Position numbers and translations under genes: made by a program. Below the pieces are notes generated by a model, which made no database searches, was not told the origin of the DNA, and saw only the letters and a program-made list of their open reading frames with translations. From a virus, in UHGV virus genome UHGV-0289063: a stretch of 47,718 nt of DNA. One strand, written 5' to 3'. Shown here one piece after another: positions 675 through 44,714 of the stretch (position 1 is its first letter; every line of letters begins with the position of its first letter).

Positions 675-750
675 TTATCTATTTGCAGTGTCGATCAATA
701 GCGTTTGTGGTGCTACACTTCAGACCTTTCTGAATTCACTGATTTCTATA

Positions 751-1113
751 ATGTTAAAGTTATTCGCCAGGTACACATCGATAGGTGTCATCAACACGCT
801 CATTCATTGGGTAGTGTTCGCCATATGCATCTACGCATTTCATACAGGTCAGGCGCTAGGCAACCTTGCCGGGTTCGTTGTCGCTGTATCGTTCAGCTTC
901 TTCGCCAATGCCAGATTCACCTTCAAGTCATCAACCACGACCATGCGCTACATGCTGTATGTAGGGTTTATGGGTGCGTTGAGCGCTGCAGTGGGCTGGG
1001 CAGCAGATAAATCAGGCATGGCACCTGTTATCACGTTAATCGTATTCTCCGCAATCAGCCTTGTTTGCGGTTTCATCTATTCAAAATTCATTGTCTTTAG
1101 GGATGCGAAATGA
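751..1113 (+). CDS. gtrA: GtrA-family bactoprenol-linked glucose translocase (flippase)
   Basis: [23 protein letters not shown]...FIVFRDAK is colinear with the GtrA proteins of Shigella/Salmonella phages. The ORF-track start at 688 is a GTG; the homologous start is the ATG at 751. Confidence 0.85.
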
Positions 1114-2039
1114 AAATTTCTCTGGTTGTTCCCGTCTTCAACGAAGAAGACGCGATACCAATTTTTTATAAAACGGTTCGGGAATTTGAAGAGCTCAGGC
1201 AGCATGAAGTAGAAATCGTCTTCATCAATGACGGCAGCAAAGACGCGACAGAATCCATCATTAACGCACTTGCGATCGCTGATCCGCTTGTGGTTCCTCT
1301 GTCTTTCACGCGTAATTTTGGCAAAGAGCCGGCGCTTTTTGCCGGACTCGATCACGCAACTGGCGACGCTGTTATACCGATTGATGTCGACCTTCAGGAC
1401 CCCATCGAAGTCATCCCTCACCTGATAGAAAAGTGGCAGGCTGGCGCTGACATGGTACTGGCAAAACGCTCTGATCGTTCTACCGATGGCCGCCTGAAAC
1501 GTAAGACTGCAGAGTGGTTCTATAAGCTGCACAACAAAATAAGCAATCCCCAGATTGAAGAGAACGTTGGCGACTTCCGTCTGATGTCACGTGAGATGGT
1601 GGAAAACATTAAACTTCTTCCAGAGCGTAACCTCTTCATGAAGGGAGTTCTCAGTTGGGTTGGCGGAAAAACAGACGTAATTGAATATGCCCGCGCAGAA
1701 CGCATTGCCGGCGACACAAAGTTCAACGGATGGAAACTGTGGAACCTTGCACTAGAAGGTATCACAAGCTTCTCAACATTCCCTCTGCGCATGTGGACCT
1801 ATATCGGCCTCGTTGTTGCCAGCCTGGCATTCTTGTACGGTGCCTGGATGATTATTGACACAATCGCATTCGGAAACCCTGTTAGAGGTTATCCTTCCCT
1901 GCTTGTGTCAATTCTATTTTTGGGTGGAGTGCAGTTGATCGGGATTGGGGTGCTTGGCGAATACATTGGAAGAATTTATGTAGAGGTAAAGAACAGACCT
2001 CGGTACGTGTTAAAGAACGATAAAAAGGATTCAAGATGA
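1110..2039 (+). CDS. gtrB: GtrB bactoprenol glucosyltransferase (GT2 family)
   Basis: [13 protein letters not shown]...INDGSKD...VDLQDP GT2 motifs plus C-terminal TM helices. It overlaps gtrA by 4 nt. Confidence 0.9.
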
Positions 2040-3673
2040 GAGTTATTAAGTATTGTCCTGTTTTGCTTTTCTTTATTGCAGTCTTCCTTGTTGCGATTAG
2101 AACGCCAATGCAGTCTGATGACTATACTTACATGTTTATTGGCACCAATTTCAATGACCACTTACACCACTACATGACATGGAGTGGTAGATTGGTTGCT
2201 GACTATGTAAGCGGCTTTCTTCTTGGGCATTTGAACTACATCACGTACTCTTTCCTTAATGTTGCAGCATTAGTAACAATGATATCATGCATATCAATTC
2301 TTCCGTCAGCTGTAATTGGGAAGCTAAGATTCAGCCCATTTAATTTCACCATCATAGCACTCTTATACTGGATAGCTAACCCAAACCTTGGGCAAACGAC
2401 TTTCTGGATTGTTGGATCTGCAAACTACCTTTGGACAAGCATGTTCATTTCGGTTTTTTTTGTTTGCTATTTTCACTTGGCCAGAAAAGAAAAAAACACA
2501 GTATTAAGTACACTATTTCTGTTCATTGCTGCACTTCTTGCTGGATGTTCAAATGAAAATACATCAATAGTTACTTTTATTGTTGTTGCTGTTTGCTCGT
2601 TTATATTCAAAAACAAAGCTACCTCTGTCATCTCTCTTGTTGGCATTTTGATTGGCGCTTTGACACTTCTGCTTTCTCCTGGAAACTATCTAAGAAACAG
2701 TAGCAGTTCGTTTGATTACTGGCACAATATGTCAATCGTCGATAAGTTGTGGGAGCATTTCTACAAACGTTTCCCTGAAGCAGTAGCTTCGTACTGGCAG
2801 GTATACCTTATCGCGATCCTAGCTTTGGCTGTTATATCAGTCGTGGGCCTAAAAGATAAGAAGAACATTCTTTTTTCTGTCGTCTTTATGATTGGCTCTC
2901 TCATGGCTAACGCTGCGTTCATCGGGTCTCCAACAATGCCAGCAAGAGCGCTAAGTGGTGGATTGTTTTTCGCACTGATTTCGCTTTCGTTTCTCGTTCA
3001 TGAAGCGTCATCTGGCGACAAAATTTACTCAGTGCCATTCAAGATTGCTTCATTATGTTTTTCTCTGATTTATTTCATACCATCCTATTTAGCTCTGCTG
3101 TATGTTTTTAATGAGACAATGTATCAAGCTAAAGTAAGAGATGCCATCATTGAGAAAGGAAAGCAAGACAACGCTCCTGTTGTAGAGATACCACAGTGGT
3201 ACTTCACGCGAACAGCAAAAGTCAGCGACAGGTTTGATACATTCCATAGCCACTCCATTAAAAGATACTACGGAGTGAACGATTTTGTCGTCAACACCGT
3301 AAGCTTTGATTACGGCCAAATCCTCAAAGCAAAAAAAATACATGTTGATAGATCTTTGATGGGAAATTCTGTACTGAATTCTATTTATCTATATAAGGAT
3401 ATGGTCACAGACAGAAACCATGTTCTTTTTGAGCTAAATGATGCTGACCATGATAAATATGGCGATGACTATCTAATGGTTAATCATATTTATGTTAAAG
3501 GAAAGGGATATATAAATGCAGATGCTCGCATGACACTGCAGCGAGTTGGAGAAAATATGTACATCGACAGTACATTTAAAGGTGCTGAGTTTGATGACAT
3601 TGAAATGATGGTTGTAGGTATTCACAAGAAATCTACTGGCGAACTGCTATCTAGAATTGAAGTGACACCATAA
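2036..3673 (+). CDS. gtrC: GtrC-like serotype-specific O-antigen glucosyltransferase; polytopic membrane protein with a ~190-aa hydrophilic C-terminal domain
   Basis: Third-gene position of a gtr operon. It is AT-rich, has multiple hydrophobic helices, and is 545 aa long. It overlaps gtrB by 4 nt. Confidence 0.7.
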
Positions 3674-27454: not shown

Positions 27455-27564
27455 GCGGCTTCCTTCTGTGGCTGGTTGGTTTGCTGGCTGTGCTTTGCTA
27501 CTGGCGGCATGCTGGCGCGCTTAACGCTTTCTGCCTGGTACTGCAGGAGGTCGGCGTGGTTCAT
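27451..27564 (-). CDS. 37-aa hypothetical protein, coupled to the Q-like gene
   Basis: ATGA overlaps at both junctions; RBS GAAGGAG. The translation initiation region is a near-duplicate of the Q-like gene's. Confidence 0.35.
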   Translation of the reverse strand: MNHADLLQYQAESVKRASMPPVAKHSQQTNQPQKEAA

Positions 27565-28202
27565 GCGGACTCCTTCTGCTTTGGTCCGCGATATTCACCA
27601 TACAGAGGTGCTCTTCCTCTTGGCCTGGTATGCCTGTGGGTTACTTTGGGAGAAAAAAGCGCATCCTCTACATTCATTCCATTTTTTAGTCGACGCTTGA
27701 TGGATGTTTCTGATACTGAAACTCGAGGATCCCTTGACCATTCTGTGGCGGTTTTCGTTTCGCCATTAAAAGTTATGGCTGTGCGTCCTTTTTTTGTGTG
27801 CTCAGGGATATGCACTCGAGATCGCATGACATTACACGCCCTGCACAGCACCCTAAGATTTGAGTCCGCATTGTTATCAACAACCTCATCAATGTGATCA
27901 ATATGCGCGGTTTTCCATGTGACCTCCTTGCCGCATTTTTCGCATGGTGGAAGTGTTTCTCCATAACGGTCGTAAACAACTTTTCGGTGCTCATATACGC
28001 AACCATTCGCCATTGATAGTGGGTGATCAGGAATTTTGAGCATTTGATATCCTTTCGCATTTTTATGCCTGAATTTCCCTTTACCGTTTTTTGTGAGTTC
28101 GTAGGTCCCGTAGCGCATCATTCGGAAGTAGTGCATTTGACAGATACCCTTCCCTGGGTAGTGTTTGCATTCACGATCACAACCTTCAACTTTGCATTTC
28201 AT
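27561..28202 (-). CDS. HNH endonuclease with an N-terminal Zn-finger; probable homing-type insertion
   Basis: CEKCGK...AHIDHID...NLRVLCRACN HNH motif. AT-rich relative to its neighbours. Confidence 0.8.
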   Translation of the reverse strand: MKCKVEGCDRECKHYPGKGICQMHYFRMMRYGTYELTKNGKGKFRHKNAKGYQMLKIPDHPLSMANGCVYEHRKVVYDRYGETLPPCEKCGKEVTWKTAHIDHIDEVVDNNADSNLRVLCRACNVMRSRVHIPEHTKKGRTAITFNGETKTATEWSRDPRVSVSETSIKRRLKNGMNVEDALFSPKVTHRHTRPRGRAPLYGEYRGPKQKESA

Positions 28203-35711: not shown

Positions 35712-36416
35712 ATGAAAACATTCGCAGATCGACTTAACGCGGCTATGAGAGCCGCAGGCATATCCCAAGGGCAGCTGGCTGAGAAAGTCGGCATATCTCA
35801 ACCTGCAATTCAGAAAATGACATCAGGCAAAACCACAGGCAGCCGTAAGATGGTTGAGCTTGCTCATGCATTGAACGTGCGTCCGGAATGGCTCAGTTCG
35901 GGCATAGGCTCAATGCAGGACGAAGGACGCAAGGACTCCGCTATCCCACCAGAATCGGAATGGGGTAAAGTTGACGCTTGGGATAGCAAAACAGATCTGC
36001 CAGATGACGAGGTCGAAGTGCCATATCTGAAAGACATAGAACTTGCGTGTGGTGATGGTTCCTGCTTGGAAGATGACTATAACGGATTCAAACTTCGTTT
36101 TGCGAAGTCTACCCTTCGTAAGGTGGGAGCCCAGAAAGATAGCGTGCTGTGCTTCCCGGCATCAGGAAATAGCATGGAGCCCATGATCCCGGAAGGGACG
36201 ACGGTCGCTATCAACACGAACGACAAAAAGATCGTTGATGGCAAGGTTTATGCAATAAGCCAGGACGGATGGAAAAGGCTAAAATCCATTTATCGTGTCA
36301 GTCCTACCCGCATCGTGATTCGCAGCTTCAACAGTGAAGAGTACCCTGATGAAGAAGCGGATATCGAGAGCGTAGAGATTATTGGTCGCATGTTCTGGAC
36401 ATCTACTATCTGGTAA
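35712..36416 (+). CDS. cI: CI-type prophage repressor (HTH_XRE plus S24 LexA-like autopeptidase)
   Basis: N-terminal HTH ISQGQLAEKVGISQPAIQKM. C-terminal ASGNSMEP catalytic Ser and a WKRLK Lys. Confidence 0.85.
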   Translation: MKTFADRLNAAMRAAGISQGQLAEKVGISQPAIQKMTSGKTTGSRKMVELAHALNVRPEWLSSGIGSMQDEGRKDSAIPPESEWGKVDAWDSKTDLPDDEVEVPYLKDIELACGDGSCLEDDYNGFKLRFAKSTLRKVGAQKDSVLCFPASGNSMEPMIPEGTTVAINTNDKKIVDGKVYAISQDGWKRLKSIYRVSPTRIVIRSFNSEEYPDEEADIESVEIIGRMFWTSTIW

Positions 36417-39782: not shown

Positions 39783-40295
39783 ATGCATGAAATGTCTGAA
39801 ACTAAAACTCACTACCGAAAAGCTTTTGACTCCCCTTACCTGAGCAGCGCCGATATCGTTGAGCCAACGGTGCTGACGATCGCCCGGGCAACGTTAGAAA
39901 ACGACAAAACAAAAAAATCCAAAGACGTTTTTAACACCGCTTATTTTGAAGAGCGCGAGCTGCGCCCTGGCGAAAAGCTTAAGCCGATGATTTTGAATGC
40001 AACCAATAGCAAGATGCTGAAAAGCATCACCGGATCCCCCTTCCTTGAGGATTGGGTAGGCGTGAAGGTCACTGTTTACGTCGATAAAAATGTCCGGTTC
40101 GGAAAGGAATCGGTTGAAGGCCTCCGCTTAAGCCCGGCACGCGTTACAAAGCCGGTGCTTTCACCGGAAAAAACGCAGGCATGGAATAACGCTAAGGCCG
40201 CCTTCAAGCGCGATGGCAACCTTGATGCAGTGCTGGCGAGAATGGACATTTCTCCAGAACATCGCCGCCAGCTTGAGCAGGAGTGTTCATCATGA
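39783..40295 (+). CDS. Hypothetical protein upstream of the exonuclease; possible ssDNA-binding/annealing partner (start at 39783 or 39792)
   Basis: Position; no verified motif. Confidence 0.35.
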   Translation: MHEMSETKTHYRKAFDSPYLSSADIVEPTVLTIARATLENDKTKKSKDVFNTAYFEERELRPGEKLKPMILNATNSKMLKSITGSPFLEDWVGVKVTVYVDKNVRFGKESVEGLRLSPARVTKPVLSPEKTQAWNNAKAAFKRDGNLDAVLARMDISPEHRRQLEQECSS

Positions 40296-40915
40296 TCTGG
40301 CACGACGTCGAGCAAAACGGTGAAGAGTGGGATGCTCTTCGCCTGGGTAAGGCAACCGCTTCAAACTTCGGCCTGATCATGGCTAACGATGGGAAGGCTT
40401 TTGGCGAACCAGCCAAGCGTTACGCCCTACAGTTGGCTCTGGAGCAGATTAAGGGATGCAAGTCTGAGTTCGGCTTCTCAAACGAACACATGGAACGCGG
40501 GCACGAACAGGAGCCAATTGCCCGCATGCTGTACGAAGAGATGAACTTTGTCGACGTGGATAACGGCGGGTTCTTTGATCACGAAACATACGGAGACAGC
40601 CCCGACGGCCTCGTTGGCCAGGACGGGCTCGTTGAGATTAAGTCGGTCATTGCCGCCACTCACTACACCACCCTCACCCGCGGATCCTTCGATCCTGCAT
40701 ACAGATGGCAACTTGTCGGTCACCTTGATTGCTCTGGCAGAGATTGGGTGGACTTCATCAGCTACTGCTCAGACTTCCCGGACGGTAAGCAGCTCATCGT
40801 CTATCGCCTTACAGCCGCCGAATGTGAATCAGAAATAGCCCGGCTGCAAGCGCGCAGAAAAGACTTCCTCGAACTTGTTGCGGACACGAAGCGCCGCATT
40901 CTGGAGCTCGAATGA
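40292..40915 (+). CDS. YqaJ-type viral recombinase exonuclease (lambda Exo-like PD-(D/E)XK fold)
   Basis: N-terminal MIWHDVEQNGEEWDALRLGKATASNFGLIM is the typical YqaJ signature. ATGA overlap with the upstream gene. Confidence 0.7.
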   Translation: MIWHDVEQNGEEWDALRLGKATASNFGLIMANDGKAFGEPAKRYALQLALEQIKGCKSEFGFSNEHMERGHEQEPIARMLYEEMNFVDVDNGGFFDHETYGDSPDGLVGQDGLVEIKSVIAATHYTTLTRGSFDPAYRWQLVGHLDCSGRDWVDFISYCSDFPDGKQLIVYRLTAAECESEIARLQARRKDFLELVADTKRRILELE

Positions 40916-41340
40916 AACGCACACCCTTCTACCGCAGGCCCGGGCGAACCGGGCAATTCTCCGGTCTGCGTGAGCGCGTTATCTGGATGATTCAGACGCG
41001 CGGCCGCCCGGTAACCGGCAGCGAAATCGCCGAGAAGTTCGGCGTAACGCTCATCGAGTTCAACCGGGTCGCCAACGGCATTACCCGCGGCTCAGGACAG
41101 ATAGCGAAGATCGTTGAGTCGGTAAAGTGGATCAACGAGGACGGCATCTGCGACCGCACTTTCGACCTCGTCAAGAAGCCGAAGGTTGTAACGCCACAGG
41201 GTAAATCGCGGCTGTTCACCCGGCGCGCCATTGAGCAATCGCAGGAAGGTAGGCGGCAGGAGTGCATAGCGCGTGCCGCCCGCCGTAGCCGCCTGATTGC
41301 TCAGGGCCTCTACATCGACGAAATGGAGTCCATCCTATGA
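40912..41340 (+). CDS. Hypothetical basic protein
   Basis: ORF; 4-nt overlaps at both ends. Confidence 0.4.
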   Translation: MKRTPFYRRPGRTGQFSGLRERVIWMIQTRGRPVTGSEIAEKFGVTLIEFNRVANGITRGSGQIAKIVESVKWINEDGICDRTFDLVKKPKVVTPQGKSRLFTRRAIEQSQEGRRQECIARAARRSRLIAQGLYIDEMESIL

Positions 41341-41489
41341 CTCACGCTCACGACGACATCAGGGTAGGCACACTATGCCTTCCCTTTATTGGTAACGGCT
41401 GGCTAATGCCATGGGGTGAAGTGGTCAGTAATCCATTAAAGGCGCAGCGGCTCGCTGAGGAATATCGGGAAAGGCAGGAGGCGGCATGA
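41337..41489 (+). CDS. 49-aa hypothetical protein, below the ORF-track threshold
   Basis: ATGA overlaps with both flanking genes. Confidence 0.4.
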   Translation: MTHAHDDIRVGTLCLPFIGNGWLMPWGEVVSNPLKAQRLAEEYRERQEAA

Positions 41490-42238
41490 TTCATTTTCAC
41501 GGCGGCCCTATTACGCCGGACACATGCGCCCTGAAGGCATGGAAAGGCAGGCACGCTTTCATTTCCTTCGCCAACCCCGGCCAATTAGCCCTGGCCAGCG
41601 AAGTCACCCAGTCTTTCGCGCTGGATAACGGCGCATTCAGTTTCTGGACGAAAAAGCGCGTTGTTAACTGGAATGACTACTACGCGTTTGTAGGACGATG
41701 GATGAATCACCCTCGCTTTGCTTTTGCTGTTATCCCTGACGTGATCGGCGGGACAAGTGAAGAGAATGACGCATTAATCACGGAATGGCCGCACGGCAAA
41801 GTAGTAGGCGCGCCTGTTTATCATTTCAACGAACCAGAATCTCGCTTCATTCGTTTGTGTCATGAATTCCCGCGAGTATGCATCGGATCAATGGGCGAAT
41901 ATGACGCTAAAAGACCAAAAGACTGCGCCGCAAAATTGCGCGACATGATTCGCCATGTCGTTGATGAAAATGGATATCCAATAACGAAATTGCATGGACT
42001 GCGCATGCTGAATAAGGACCTCTTTATGGAGGTGCCGCTTTCGTCAGCTGACAGCACCAACGTTGCAAGGAATATCGGCATTAACAAGGCATGGGATAAA
42101 TCAGCCTATGCGCCGGCAAGCAAAGAAACCCGCGCCGCTGTGCTAGTAGAGCGAATAGAAGCATATAACTCTGCATGTTCGCTCAACTATGACGAAGCCC
42201 GCGACATATTCATGCCACAACTGGCTTTTGAGGTGTAA
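41486..42238 (+). CDS. Protein resembling the TGT/DpdA fold (putative 7-deazaguanine DNA transglycosylase lacking the Zn subdomain)
   Basis: Motifs resembling queuine tRNA-ribosyltransferase: HAFISFANPGQL (compare ADIILGNTYHL) and FALDNGAFSFW (compare ILTDSGGYQV, which holds the nucleophilic Asp), plus a Gly-rich CIGSMGE segment. Adjacent to the DNA methyltransferase. Confidence 0.4.
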   Translation: MIHFHGGPITPDTCALKAWKGRHAFISFANPGQLALASEVTQSFALDNGAFSFWTKKRVVNWNDYYAFVGRWMNHPRFAFAVIPDVIGGTSEENDALITEWPHGKVVGAPVYHFNEPESRFIRLCHEFPRVCIGSMGEYDAKRPKDCAAKLRDMIRHVVDENGYPITKLHGLRMLNKDLFMEVPLSSADSTNVARNIGINKAWDKSAYAPASKETRAAVLVERIEAYNSACSLNYDEARDIFMPQLAFEV

Positions 42239-42242
42239 TTTC

Positions 42243-42770
42243 ATGACCGGAAAATATGTCAGCGAGCTTGAGTTGGGGAAGTGCGGAGAATATTACGCAA
42301 TTTTTAAGCTGGCCAAGCAGGGTTTTGTTTGTTTCCCATCAGACCAGGGATTGCCATACGACATTGTGGTTGAGGCCAACGGCAGGCTCCTTAAGGGACA
42401 GGTTCGCTCGACGCTGAAAATGCGCGATTACGGCAAATCAAAAAGTGTTTACCGGTTCGGAACGAGAACGGGGAAAGGTTATGGCCGCGCAGTATCACTT
42501 AGTACATGTGACTTCTACGCCTTCGTTGTCATCGATGAAGAGAAGATAGCCTTCATGTCTACGGATGAACTGGCCAGCACAAAAAACCCAGGAACGCTTA
42601 TCCAGACGATGGAGTTTAGATCTTCTAGCGGTATTTACCCGGGGAGGATTTATTCAAACGGCACGCAAAGGATGCTTGATTATTCACGGAATATTGAGAG
42701 CTATGAAGATTTCAACCGCGTCGTTTCTCTAATTGGAGGAAGAAGATGCCGAATCAAAAATACAGCTTAA
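42243..42770 (+). CDS. Hypothetical protein with a nuclease-like (Hjc / PD-(D/E)XK-like) N-terminal arrangement
   Basis: GEYYAIFKLAKQGF...PYDIVVEANGRLLKGQVRS arrangement resembles E...D...(E/Q)xK nuclease cores. AT-rich. RBS GAGGTG. Confidence 0.35.
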   Translation: MTGKYVSELELGKCGEYYAIFKLAKQGFVCFPSDQGLPYDIVVEANGRLLKGQVRSTLKMRDYGKSKSVYRFGTRTGKGYGRAVSLSTCDFYAFVVIDEEKIAFMSTDELASTKNPGTLIQTMEFRSSSGIYPGRIYSNGTQRMLDYSRNIESYEDFNRVVSLIGGRRCRIKNTA

Positions 42771-43408
42771 TAATGGCTGACCCGCCCTGGTCTTACGGCA
42801 ACACCATCAGCAATGGGGCTGCCGCCGATCACTACTCCACCATGAGGTTAATCGACATCAAGCGCCTTCCAGTGTGGGAACTCGCCGCCGAAAACGCGGT
42901 GCTGGCGATGTGGTACACCGGCACGCATAACCAGGAGGCTATCGAACTGGCCGAGGCCTGGGGATTTACCGTTCGCACGATGAAGGGCTTTACCTGGGTG
43001 AAGCTGAATCAGAACGCCGAGCTGCGCATCAACAAGGCGCTGGCCGAGGGTGAAATCACCGACTTTTACGACTTCCTAGATCTGCTTAACGCCGAGACGC
43101 GCATGAACGGCGGCAACCACACCCGGGCCAATACCGAAGATCTGCTGATTGCTACCCGCGGCGCCGGGCTGGAACGAAAGCACGCCGGGATTAAGCAGGC
43201 GGTCTACAGCCCGCTCGGCGCGCATAGCGAAAAGCCGTGGGAAGTGCGTCATCGGCTGGAGTTGCTGTACGGCGATGTGCCACGCATTGAGTTATTCAGC
43301 CGCTGCGCGGCGCCGGGCTGGGATCACTGGGGAAATCAGTGCGACACCGCCGCGGTAGAACTGCTGCCCGGCTGCGCCATCCAAGTTGTGAGAACGGAGG
43401 CCGCATGA
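42746..43408 (+). CDS. N6-adenine DNA methyltransferase, MT-A70 family (phage Dam-like)
   Basis: IMADPPWSY (DPPW motif IV). RBS GGAGGAAG. Confidence 0.85.
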   Translation: MPNQKYSLIMADPPWSYGNTISNGAAADHYSTMRLIDIKRLPVWELAAENAVLAMWYTGTHNQEAIELAEAWGFTVRTMKGFTWVKLNQNAELRINKALAEGEITDFYDFLDLLNAETRMNGGNHTRANTEDLLIATRGAGLERKHAGIKQAVYSPLGAHSEKPWEVRHRLELLYGDVPRIELFSRCAAPGWDHWGNQCDTAAVELLPGCAIQVVRTEAA

Positions 43409-43623
43409 CGCCAGCAAATGAAAACGCCATCCGCGCCGCCTGCCGCCGCTGCACCGAGGAAATCCAGCAGGCCATGCGCAAGAAGCCAAAGCCTAACTGG
43501 AACGAAACGGTGCCACCCATCATCAACAAGCATCACAAGAAAATTGAAGCTCTTGGAGTTAGCCTTCTGGAGTTCGTCGTCAAAACTGGCCGCCTTAACG
43601 GGCGATTTGGAGCCGAACAATGA
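43405..43623 (+). CDS. Hypothetical protein (72 aa)
   Basis: ATGA overlap with the methylase gene stop. Confidence 0.4.
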   Translation: MTPANENAIRAACRRCTEEIQQAMRKKPKPNWNETVPPIINKHHKKIEALGVSLLEFVVKTGRLNGRFGAEQ

Positions 43624-44486
43624 CAACAAAAAAATGGGGTCATAACGAGCTTGCTCATGACCTTGCAGAGCATTTGCGCCAGAACACAGCGCGCATCTGC
43701 TGGGAGGACATGCAGCTAGGGCCCGCCGGTACGTGTCGACCGGATGTCTACTCTATTGCTCACAGCTACAGCAAATTCTGCCCTGTCGTCTATGAGGTAA
43801 AAGTAAGCGTAAGTGATTTCCGTGCTGACGTTACAGCAGGCAAATACACCAAATACTTCAACTACGCAGGCGGCGTTGTTTTTGCTGTTCCTGAAGGCAT
43901 GCTCAAGAAAAGCGACATTCCAGATGGTTGTGGCTTGATGATCCGGAAGGAATCTGGATGGCATACCCTCAAGGGGCCGACCATGCGCCAGATTGATACC
44001 CTTCCTCGCGATGCCTGGATGAAGCTGCTTATGGACGGCATGACCCGGCAGGCAGAGAGAACCCAAATAAAAAGCCGCGTAATCAACACCTACCTCAGCG
44101 ACCAAAAACTAATGAAGCGACATGGCAACGAAATCGCCGATCTTGTTTGCCGAGCACATCGATCAAAGGAGCGCCTTGAGCAGCACATTAGGGATAACGA
44201 TGAAAGGCTGAAGAACCTGCGCCAGGAAAGTGAAGAGGAGTTGCAACGCCGACGTAAGCGCCGGGAGGAATCTGAGGAAAGGTTAACCGACGCTCAGCAA
44301 GATCTGGCGAAAGCGCTTGGCCTCGACCCGAATGTCCCTATGTATGTTCTTACAAGGACGCTATGGGAAGCAACGCGCCGACTCACCGAGGATGAAGAGA
44401 TTAAGAGGTTGCGAGGAATATTGTCCAACCTTGAGCGCACGTTGAATGACGGTCTGAAACCATTACCCGGGGAGAAAGCCGCATGA
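43620..44486 (+). CDS. PD-(D/E)XK nuclease-like N-terminal domain protein with a C-terminal coiled-coil
   Basis: H..E...CRPDVYSI...VVYEVKVS motif arrangement (PD...EVK). Charged coiled-coil C-terminal half. Confidence 0.4.
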   Translation: MTTKKWGHNELAHDLAEHLRQNTARICWEDMQLGPAGTCRPDVYSIAHSYSKFCPVVYEVKVSVSDFRADVTAGKYTKYFNYAGGVVFAVPEGMLKKSDIPDGCGLMIRKESGWHTLKGPTMRQIDTLPRDAWMKLLMDGMTRQAERTQIKSRVINTYLSDQKLMKRHGNEIADLVCRAHRSKERLEQHIRDNDERLKNLRQESEEELQRRRKRREESEERLTDAQQDLAKALGLDPNVPMYVLTRTLWEATRRLTEDEEIKRLRGILSNLERTLNDGLKPLPGEKAA

Positions 44487-44674
44487 ACAGAGCCTCACCC
44501 GTTGATTTGAGGAAAAGCCTCGAAATAGCCAACCACCTGGCGCACATCGGGATTCGCTTTGTGCCGATCCCGGTGTCCACCGAAGAAGAATTCCAGACGC
44601 TGGCCGCCGAGCTATCGCGACGGCTTGAGCAGATGGCTGTCGAAGCCGAGAAGAATGAAGGCGGTGCAGCATGA
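44483..44674 (+). CDS. Hypothetical protein (63 aa)
   Basis: 4-nt overlap with the upstream gene. Confidence 0.4.
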   Translation: MNRASPVDLRKSLEIANHLAHIGIRFVPIPVSTEEEFQTLAAELSRRLEQMAVEAEKNEGGAA

Positions 44675-44688
44675 AGGCACTAATCACC

Positions 44689-44714
44689 AAGGAGCTTAAG
44701 GCTCCTTTTTTATT
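44689..44714 (+). terminator. Intrinsic terminator within the early-left operon
   Basis: AAGGAGC-TTAA-GGCTCCTT followed by TTTTTTATT. Confidence 0.7.

Follow-up and report, generated by a model that had tools for sequence, protein, structure and literature searches.

A singleton DpdA gene, a homing-endonuclease-like cassette and an MT-A70 methyltransferase gene in the early-left operon of a lambdoid prophage: probably neighbours and not one module

Genes for a DpdA-like transglycosylase, a small nuclease-like protein and an MT-A70 adenine methyltransferase follow one another in the early-left (pL) operon of an SfI-like lambdoid prophage. The question that they raise is whether they make up one DNA hypermodification and anti-restriction system, as an earlier note on this DNA, drawn from the letters alone, had proposed. 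The prophage is the window of this study, the 47,718-nt stretch of UHGV virus genome UHGV-0289063, to which all coordinates refer and in which the open reading frames (ORFs) under study all lie on the + strand. We confirmed four ORFs in 41337-43408, all on that strand, and we find that the apparent 'hypermodification module' resolves into three separable, mostly known parts. Chance does not account for what was noticed: the four-gene order recurs in Klebsiella phage KO-TP1, and the DpdA-like protein has 5,486 relatives at E<=1e-3. The DpdA of the window is a further member of a catalogued clade, and the claims of novelty and of a module are unsupported. The whole is best explained, in our opinion probably correctly, by a region that holds independently acquired accessory genes (DpdA, cassette and methyltransferase) and not one system. 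The features concerned are the following.

40283-40915: YqaJ exonuclease gene, two genes upstream of the DpdA gene and not adjoining it, as the earlier note had it
40912-41340, + strand: PNB-2 homologue, 142 aa (53% identity to PA8 gp6/PNB-2; phrog_1680, E=6e-76)
41337-41489, + strand: DUF1317 ORF, 50 aa (PF07026, E=1.8e-15; phrog_1998, E=6e-28)
41486-42238, + strand: singleton DpdA, 250 aa (phrog_887, E=3e-90; alignment with the Iggy DpdA family)
42243-42770, + strand: free-standing I-Ssp6803I-type PD-(D/E)XK homing-endonuclease-like protein, 175 aa
42257-42763: low-GC cassette, 507 bp, inserted after codon 5 of the MT-A70 gene
42746-43408, + strand: MT-A70-family (class beta, DPPW) adenine methyltransferase, 220 aa (PF05063, E=5.9e-24)

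Linkage is the first issue. We searched 55 genomic loci encoding DpdA relatives, plus phage loci (about 60 in all), for the neighbour genes of the window. The nuclease-like gene adjoins DpdA in a single one of them besides the window, Klebsiella phage KO-TP1, and an MT-A70 gene does so in six, lying downstream in L001, L007, L008 and L010 and upstream in L032 and L034. Among the closest phage relatives, the gene order is exo-DUF1317-DpdA in SfI, where small ORFs and then a DksA-like gene come next, Ea22-like-DpdA-EaA in BTP1, and DksA-like-DpdA-exonuclease in Eeyore. Within the mosaic early-left region, DpdA behaves like an accessory gene in its own right.

The second issue is the nuclease-like gene, which belongs to a segment with exact boundaries. 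In the cassette-free loci L007, L008 and L010, the MT-A70 start (ATGACCGGAAAATAC... = MTGKYSLIYADPPW) comes within 5-12 nt of the DpdA stop codon, and the 5' region of the MT-A70 gene in the L008 allele reads ...ATGACCGGAAAATACTCACTTATCTATGCTGATCCTCCCTGG... The window and KO-TP1 carry a 507-bp segment (42257-42763; L001 6920-7426) after ATGACCGGAAAATA, so that the nuclease ORF takes its start and five codons from the former 5' end of MT-A70. At its 3' end the cassette has GGAGG-N6-ATG (ATG at 42746), which gives MT-A70 a new N-terminus (MPNQKYSLIMADPPW), and AAAATA is repeated at both junctions. When the window is compared with KO-TP1 in bins of 30 nt, the cassette is 96-100% identical (about 99%) and the flanks 63-90%. 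Furthermore, the first 30 nt of MT-A70 at the junction are 90% identical between the cassette-bearing alleles and 70% identical to the cassette-free L008 allele, a pattern that looks like a co-conversion tract. The segment has moved recently, lies at a recurrent site and shows presence/absence polymorphism.

Its product has, as the earlier note had suspected, a PD-(D/E)XK fold, that of I-Ssp6803I. PF11645 (PDDEXK_5) scores 26.0 bits on the 175-aa protein, for a gathering cut-off of 26.1 bits, and most of the 32 homologous clusters of the family carry a precomputed PF11645 hit. Relatives with 64-37% identity lie immediately 5' of MT-A70 genes in five other contexts, namely the nin region in Klebsiella, the early-left region in Serratia, the interval from NinB to NinE in Pectobacterium, and two unrelated metagenomic phages (L063-L066, L067-L068, L069, L072 and L073). 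In a sixth context (L070/L071), the relative stands 5' of a truncated, 28-aa MT-A70 remnant; DpdA is absent from all six. The GC content of the nuclease gene is below that of its partner MT-A70 in 6/6 pairs measured (in the window 0.47 and 0.61, respectively, with 0.50 for DpdA). We also noticed that the nuclease ORF of L069 starts with MNEK..., as does MT-A70 in L063 (N-terminus MNEKY), a repeat of the capture of the start codon described for the window.

The former MT-A70 start codon sets the reading frame of the nuclease ORF, which is free-standing and not intron-encoded. A group I intron around the gene was considered and rejected, as Rfam detected neither a group I intron nor any other RNA family at E<=1 in 40800-43700. 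A partnership of the nuclease with Dam (PF05869) methylases, suggested by L070/L071, was likewise discarded because the truncated MT-A70 remnant lies directly downstream.

How could such a cassette have settled there? It would have inserted into the first codons of MT-A70 and taken over the start codon; since it supplies a new ribosome-binding site and ATG, the methylase would still be made. The 175-aa protein would then be expected to cleave cassette-free MT-A70 alleles. Whether the cassette is an active free-standing homing endonuclease gene of the I-Ssp6803I family, one that specifically enters prophage MT-A70 genes at their 5' end and still lets them be expressed, is a matter on which we find the chances evenly balanced. 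Two observations weigh against it. First, E16, D40 and Q53 are invariant and the position of the catalytic Lys is occupied by Arg55 (QVR), so that the full E...D...Q-x-K set is lacking; this Arg is common to the window, its seven closest homologues and P0415, and Lys is found in the other 20 sequences of A5. Second, an AAAATA-flanked indel might just as well reflect a loss from the cassette-free alleles.

Another arrangement would be a compact type II restriction-modification pair in which the nuclease would cut DNA that lacks the mark of the methylase. We consider this unlikely: cassette and methylase gene do not share one history, a nuclease copy survives beside a truncated methylase, and the fold matched is that of a homing enzyme.

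With these results in hand, the idea of a single package can be weighed. DpdA, the small nuclease and MT-A70 would constitute one coordinated anti-restriction or hypermodification unit, in which both DNA modifications would shield the phage genome and the nuclease would, for instance, process DNA for the base exchange. The genes do adjoin one another on the same strand. Indeed, ATGA overlaps join YqaJ to the 142-aa ORF, that ORF to DUF1317 and DUF1317 to the 250-aa ORF, a gap of 4 bases separates the 250-aa from the 175-aa ORF, and the latter overlaps the MT-A70 ORF by 25 bases. Promoter and terminator consensus scans of 40000-44700 gave no signal beyond shuffle expectation, so no convincing internal promoter or terminator splits the gene set. 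KO-TP1 shows the matching four-gene arrangement, 88% identical and already annotated in GenBank. MT-A70 comes directly after DpdA in L007, L008 and L010 and before it in L032 and L034, and MED16 also pairs a lone DpdA with an adenine methylase. Against this stand the low linkage of both partners, the different DpdA neighbours in SfI, BTP1 and Eeyore, the recent arrival of the nuclease as a 507-bp insertion (about 99% identity between two phages, with flanks that differ by 10-37%), and the location of its family before MT-A70 genes in loci without DpdA. Moreover, in MED16 N6-methyldeoxyadenosine (m6dA) alone affected the tested restriction enzymes and the deazaguanine brought no measurable protection (PMC8306585). 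A functional package thus appears to us very improbable, and the nuclease is better described as a cassette tied to MT-A70.

What is the DpdA-like protein? The 250-aa product matches phrog_887, 'queuine tRNA-ribosyltransferase', in PHROGs, and a tblastn search of phage genomes with it returned 118 records. Identity is 91% to Eeyore, 82% to SfI and 66% to BTP1 and SPN3UB (over the full length of the protein for SfI and for BTP1/SPN3UB), 40% to SEN1 and 36% to HK106. Among more distant matches, it is 33% to 7-11 (E=9e-26) and 30% to the DpdA of Iggy (E=6e-5). A comparison by hhalign of the profile of the window DpdA family (A1), built without Iggy sequences, with that of the Iggy DpdA family (A4) gave a probability of 96.2% and E=2.3e-9 over 144 columns. 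These three lines connect the protein to the DpdAs of phages with 7-deazaguanine in their DNA. It is a singleton DpdA with a barrel of the tRNA-guanine transglycosylase (TGT) superfamily and a putative DNA guanine/7-deazaguanine transglycosylase, and in this respect the earlier note, which called it DpdA-like, was right. It has a TGT-like (beta/alpha)8 barrel fold, its best structural match being Cap10. It lacks the zinc subdomain, as had also been proposed: the CxCxxC motif is absent and its five Cys are scattered.

Several searches weigh against this assignment. Pfam, NCBIfam and PADLOC were silent on the 250-aa protein, with no match to TGT (PF01702) at E<=10, and searches of PDB sequences (phmmer and two profile searches) linked it to no TGT or other PDB chain. 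Alignment by hhalign of shallow and deep DpdA family profiles with E. coli TGT was negative, Pfam scans of 67 DpdA relatives, member by member at E<=10, revealed no link to TGT, and Foldseek returned generic TIM barrels only. Forced global or low-mact hhalign toward TGT was uninformative. In the profile check suggested in the earlier note, D47 aligned with D69 of Iggy, and TGT itself was not reached. Nevertheless, the DpdA of Iggy likewise fails the Pfam TGT and solved-structure sequence tests, which means that these tests are insensitive for phage DpdAs and do not define them. A search with the Iggy DpdA found only close relatives (at least 65% identity), none with Pfam hits, and so no bridge to TGT; these relatives nonetheless enabled the family-to-family hhalign. 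For the MED16 DpdA, an HHpred probability of 99.2% to T. maritima TGT was reported by the authors (PMC8306585).

The clade is large and was catalogued earlier. The relatives form 5,486 clusters at 90% identity (E<=1e-3), with 1,766 representatives at 50% identity, and come from prophages of Enterobacterales, Aeromonas, Shewanella, Vibrio and Burkholderiales and from various metagenome-assembled genomes (MAGs). Most source databases, NCBI among them, label them 'hypothetical protein', and GenBank phage records use the PHROG-derived 'queuine tRNA-ribosyltransferase'. Hutinet et al. 2019, whose DpdA-only group counts 76 phages and in whose work the singleton DpdAs of gamma-Proteobacteria cluster separately, list SfI, HK106, BTP1, SPN3UB, SEN1, SE131, PEAT2 and 7-11 in their Supplementary Data 1 (PMC6884629). 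The arrangement had been presented as uncharacterised; in fact lone DpdAs of temperate lambdoid and P22-like phages were listed in 2019, and phage MED16, which has a lone DpdA plus an adenine methylase, has been analysed by liquid chromatography-tandem mass spectrometry (LC-MS/MS). We also observed relatives with 42-59% identity in MAGs of Burkholderiales, Nitrosomonadales, Amaricoccus, Acidobacteria and Candidatus Peribacteria (L035, L036, L038-L056, L059), which makes the clade far wider than the gamma-Proteobacteria cluster of 2019.

The next issue is the active site. The motif segments pointed out in the earlier note are indeed present, with HAFISFANPGQL at residue 23, FALDNGAFSFW at 44 and CIGSMGE at 132. 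Across 67 diverse relatives, D47, H170, D189 and S190 never vary, and conservation is at least 90% at D85, H113 and G134. The hhalign comparison pairs D47, H113, G134, H170 and D189 of the window with D69, H138, G159, H193 and D212 of Iggy, respectively; D85 sits two residues off D111 of Iggy in this alignment, which is a point against its proposed equivalence. In the bacterial DpdA, the corresponding set consists of D95, a general acid/base acting with F99, D130, H181-G182, G206-G207 and the nucleophile D256, and exchange is abolished in D95A or D256A (PMC10164549). D130 is its base-recognising Asp, and H181 (H196 in 9g) is the DpdA signature His. The window protein displays what would be the same residue series, in the same order and spacing (D47...F51, D85, H113, G134/G137, D189), with F51 at +4 of D47 as F99 is to D95, and both the acid/base and the nucleophile Asp have a counterpart, D47 in LDNGAF and D189 in SADST. 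We compared the motifs manually, using the Iggy DpdA as a bridge, in the order TGT, Iggy DpdA and window.

LTDSGGFQ, FLDSGAFS, ALDNGAFS
AVGGLAVGE, TIGGMVGK, CIGSMGEY
YLMGVG, KVHGFG, KLHGLR
MFDCVMPTR, YSCDSSSW, SSADSTNVAR

From this comparison, we propose an active site made of D47 (acid/base), D85, H113, G134/G137, H170 and D189 (nucleophile); the probable equivalence of D47 and D189 with residues of TGT is drawn from the order of the motifs and from the fold, not from residue-level superposition. Two assignments of the earlier note have to be revised accordingly with the motifs: the Asp of LDNGAF, taken there for the nucleophile, would be the acid/base, the nucleophile equivalent being D189 in SSADST, and CIGSMGE, taken for the counterpart of LMGVGKP, better fits the Gly-rich AVGGLAVGE loop, LMGVGKP having its counterpart in KLHGLRM.

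What could a singleton DpdA do for the phage? No Que or FolE domain turned up when ORFs from across the window were scanned with Pfam, which places the gene in the singleton group. With no deazaguanine-synthesis genes found in the window, the enzyme would depend on host preQ0, as the earlier note had surmised. Hosts of DpdA-only phages possess the full queuosine (Q) pathway, except Clostridium and Mycobacterium (Hutinet et al., PMC6884629). In phage 7-11, which has no que genes, the deoxynucleoside of 7-amido-7-deazaguanine (dADG) amounts to about 0.02% of G, and phage Orion, whose host does not synthesise preQ0, has none in its DNA (PMC6884629). For MED16, which has a lone DpdA, a Dam-superfamily methylase and no que genes, LC-MS/MS showed that dADG makes up about 0.13% of G, next to a trace of dPreQ0 and to m6dA (PMC8306585). 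Full-pathway phages replace 16-32% of G or more; in Iggy, about 16.5% of G is replaced by dPreQ0 (PMC10484667). In the literature searched, we found no experimental work on the DpdA of SfI, HK106, BTP1, SPN3UB or SEN1, the temperate lambdoid enzymes.

Given the low-level dADG of 7-11 and MED16 and the Q pathway of the hosts, low-level post-replicative insertion of preQ0 is the likeliest activity here. After induction, DpdA would exchange a small fraction of the guanines of phage DNA, once replicated, for a preQ0-derived 7-deazaguanine supplied by the queuosine pathway of the host. The chemistry would be a double displacement, with D189 as the nucleophile and D47 as the general acid/base, and the end product dPreQ0 or dADG, perhaps with conversion of host preQ0 to ADG. 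DNA would be the substrate and a 7-deazaguanine the inserted base, and some gain to the phage may follow. The very low modification measured elsewhere in singleton-DpdA phages (at most 0.13% of G, none in Orion) weighs against such a role of DNA modification and its benefit.

The same low values bring in another explanation, namely that the singleton DpdA does not act on DNA and handles 7-deazaguanine on protein or tRNA, like Cap10 of the type IV cyclic-oligonucleotide-based antiphage signalling system (CBASS) or TGT, possibly interfering with deazaguanine-dependent defences of the host or with translation. Cap10 is the best structural match, it is likewise devoid of the zinc site, and it pairs a His with the catalytic Asp (H226/D248), to be compared with the invariant H170/D189 here. 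Modification is near trace in the tested singleton phages, and we obtained no evidence of DNA binding for the window protein. We hold this alternative to be improbable. Its extension to the whole clade of 5,486 clusters, Cap10- or TGT-like enzymes acting on protein- or tRNA-linked 7-deazaguanine or on a few DNA sites, countering type IV CBASS or Dpd or retuning translation, with the dADG of 7-11 and MED16 as a side reaction, seems to us equally doubtful.

The last of the three parts is the methyltransferase, for which the family named in the earlier note stands. Besides its Pfam match, the ORF matches phrog_359 (E=1e-98) and PADLOC MTase_II (E=4e-53), it has the MT-A70 (class beta) domain with DPPW at residues 12-15, and it is 93% identical to the cassette-free allele of L008. 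Its closest characterised relative is M.EcoPA8orf6770P of the Shiga toxin (Stx) phage PA8 (44% identity, E=5e-59). That enzyme is reported to form a holoenzyme with PNB-2, which is encoded immediately upstream and would steer it to 16S rRNA, and to favour the 16S rRNA of the 30S subunit over DNA more than 13-fold, and M.EcoGV, a close relative of the PA8 enzyme, methylates GATC when overproduced (PMC10810198). The 40912-41340 protein, whose gene falls outside the range given in the earlier note, aligns with PA8 gp6/PNB-2 over its full length (E=2e-51) and has a weak HTH_11 match; KO-TP1 annotates the counterpart of this 142-aa ORF as 'regulatory protein'. Both partners are thus found in one operon, 1.4 kb apart, with DUF1317, dpdA and the cassette in between. 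The MT-A70 enzyme, possibly with the PNB-2 homologue, would methylate adenine in DNA and/or in 16S rRNA. As the enzyme may mark DNA, rRNA or both, the 'two orthogonal DNA modifications' of the earlier note are not established. We note that the 142-aa ORF also precedes DUF1317-DpdA in L009 (95% identical), where no MT-A70 was found within 5 kb. A kinship of PNB-2 with the nuclease-like protein was rejected, the two being unrelated on comparison.

The surroundings are those of a prophage early region. The early-left operon reads rightward from about 36.4 kb, a cI-like repressor gene lies at 35712-36416, and the minus strand of the window carries the structural, lysis, Q, nin and replication genes; no tRNA genes were found in the window. 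The DUF1317 ORF is a common small early-left gene, translationally coupled to the DpdA gene through ATGA, as had been seen before, although with 50 residues and not 49. It stands immediately 5' of DpdA in four loci (KO-TP1, SfI, L008 and L009) and is missing from most other DpdA loci; in phage phi80 it adjoins a dam pseudogene, without DpdA.

Three other features were noticed in the window. At its left end (688-3673), genes for a GtrA-like protein, a family-2 glycosyltransferase (GtrB-like) and a DUF6056 membrane protein form a gtrA/gtrB/DUF6056 O-antigen cassette resembling the O-antigen-modifying gtrABC of phage SfI, which suggests serotype conversion by the prophage. Between the Q antiterminator and NinG genes, a 213-aa HNH endonuclease ORF (27561-28202, - strand; PF01844, E=2.6e-7) may be a further free-standing homing-type endonuclease of the nin region. 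Just 3' of MT-A70, a 288-aa ORF (43620-44486) has an N-terminal MmcB-like PD-(D/E)XK-type domain (PF06319, E=1.6e-6) and a charged, coiled-coil-like C-terminal half, and represents a second nuclease-like accessory gene in the operon.

Two points of interest remain in the locus, namely what singleton DpdAs do in temperate phages, and the homing-endonuclease-like cassette with MT-A70 genes as its target. For the former, an inducible lambdoid prophage in a genetically tractable host would be a convenient system for settling substrate and benefit. The latter is apparently an undescribed selfish element that preserves the expression of its target gene. Furthermore, the label of anti-restriction DNA methylase should not be given by default to MT-A70 genes of prophages; the window has a gene for a PNB-2 partner, and the related PA8 holoenzyme prefers 16S rRNA.

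How does this locus compare with known systems? Its DpdA is closest to the singleton phage DpdAs (group 3 of Hutinet 2019; 'DpdA/TGT_1' of the MED16 paper), such as those of SfI (YP_009147480), BTP1 (SIU02687), SPN3UB, SEN1, 7-11 and MED16, with which it shares a size of about 250 aa, the lack of phage que genes and a position in the early-left region of temperate enterobacterial phages. Nothing essential sets it apart from them, except for the downstream MT-A70 gene with its homing-endonuclease-like cassette. With the DpdA1 enzymes of phages that have the full preQ0 pathway (Iggy, CAjan, 9g), it has a homologous core in which the D, H, G, H and D motif residues align. However, identity to the Iggy DpdA is about 30%, the window protein is about 60 residues shorter, and folE/queDEC lie beside dpdA in Iggy, CAjan and 9g, where 16-32% of G is replaced, versus at most 0.13% in singleton phages. 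The precursor genes of the phage 7-deazaguanine clusters (DpdA with folE/queD/queE/queC, with or without an amidotransferase) are not found in the window. The bacterial DpdA (PDB 7ui4), TGT and ArcTGT are longer (375-413 aa vs 250), give no significant sequence match and, for the zinc site CxCxxC...H, have no counterpart in the window protein. The bacterial Dpd restriction-modification system (dpdA-K) is not recognised either, since PADLOC identified no Dpd components (DpdB ATPase, DpdC or the DpdD-K restriction proteins) among the DpdA-like and five neighbouring proteins, and the neighbours are phage early genes.

The nuclease resembles I-Ssp6803I (PDB 2ost), which is encoded in a cyanobacterial tRNA-fMet group I intron, whereas the window protein is free-standing, its cassette inserts into the protein-coding MT-A70 gene and Arg replaces the catalytic Lys. 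Close homologues of I-Ssp6803I are said to be mainly cyanobacterial (PMC3384342), and the type found in the window occurs in enterobacterial prophages. Finally, the M.EcoPA8orf6770P-PNB-2 pair of PA8 shares with the window an MT-A70 enzyme with DPPW and a PNB-2 homologue in the same operon; the two genes overlap in PA8 and are separated in the window.

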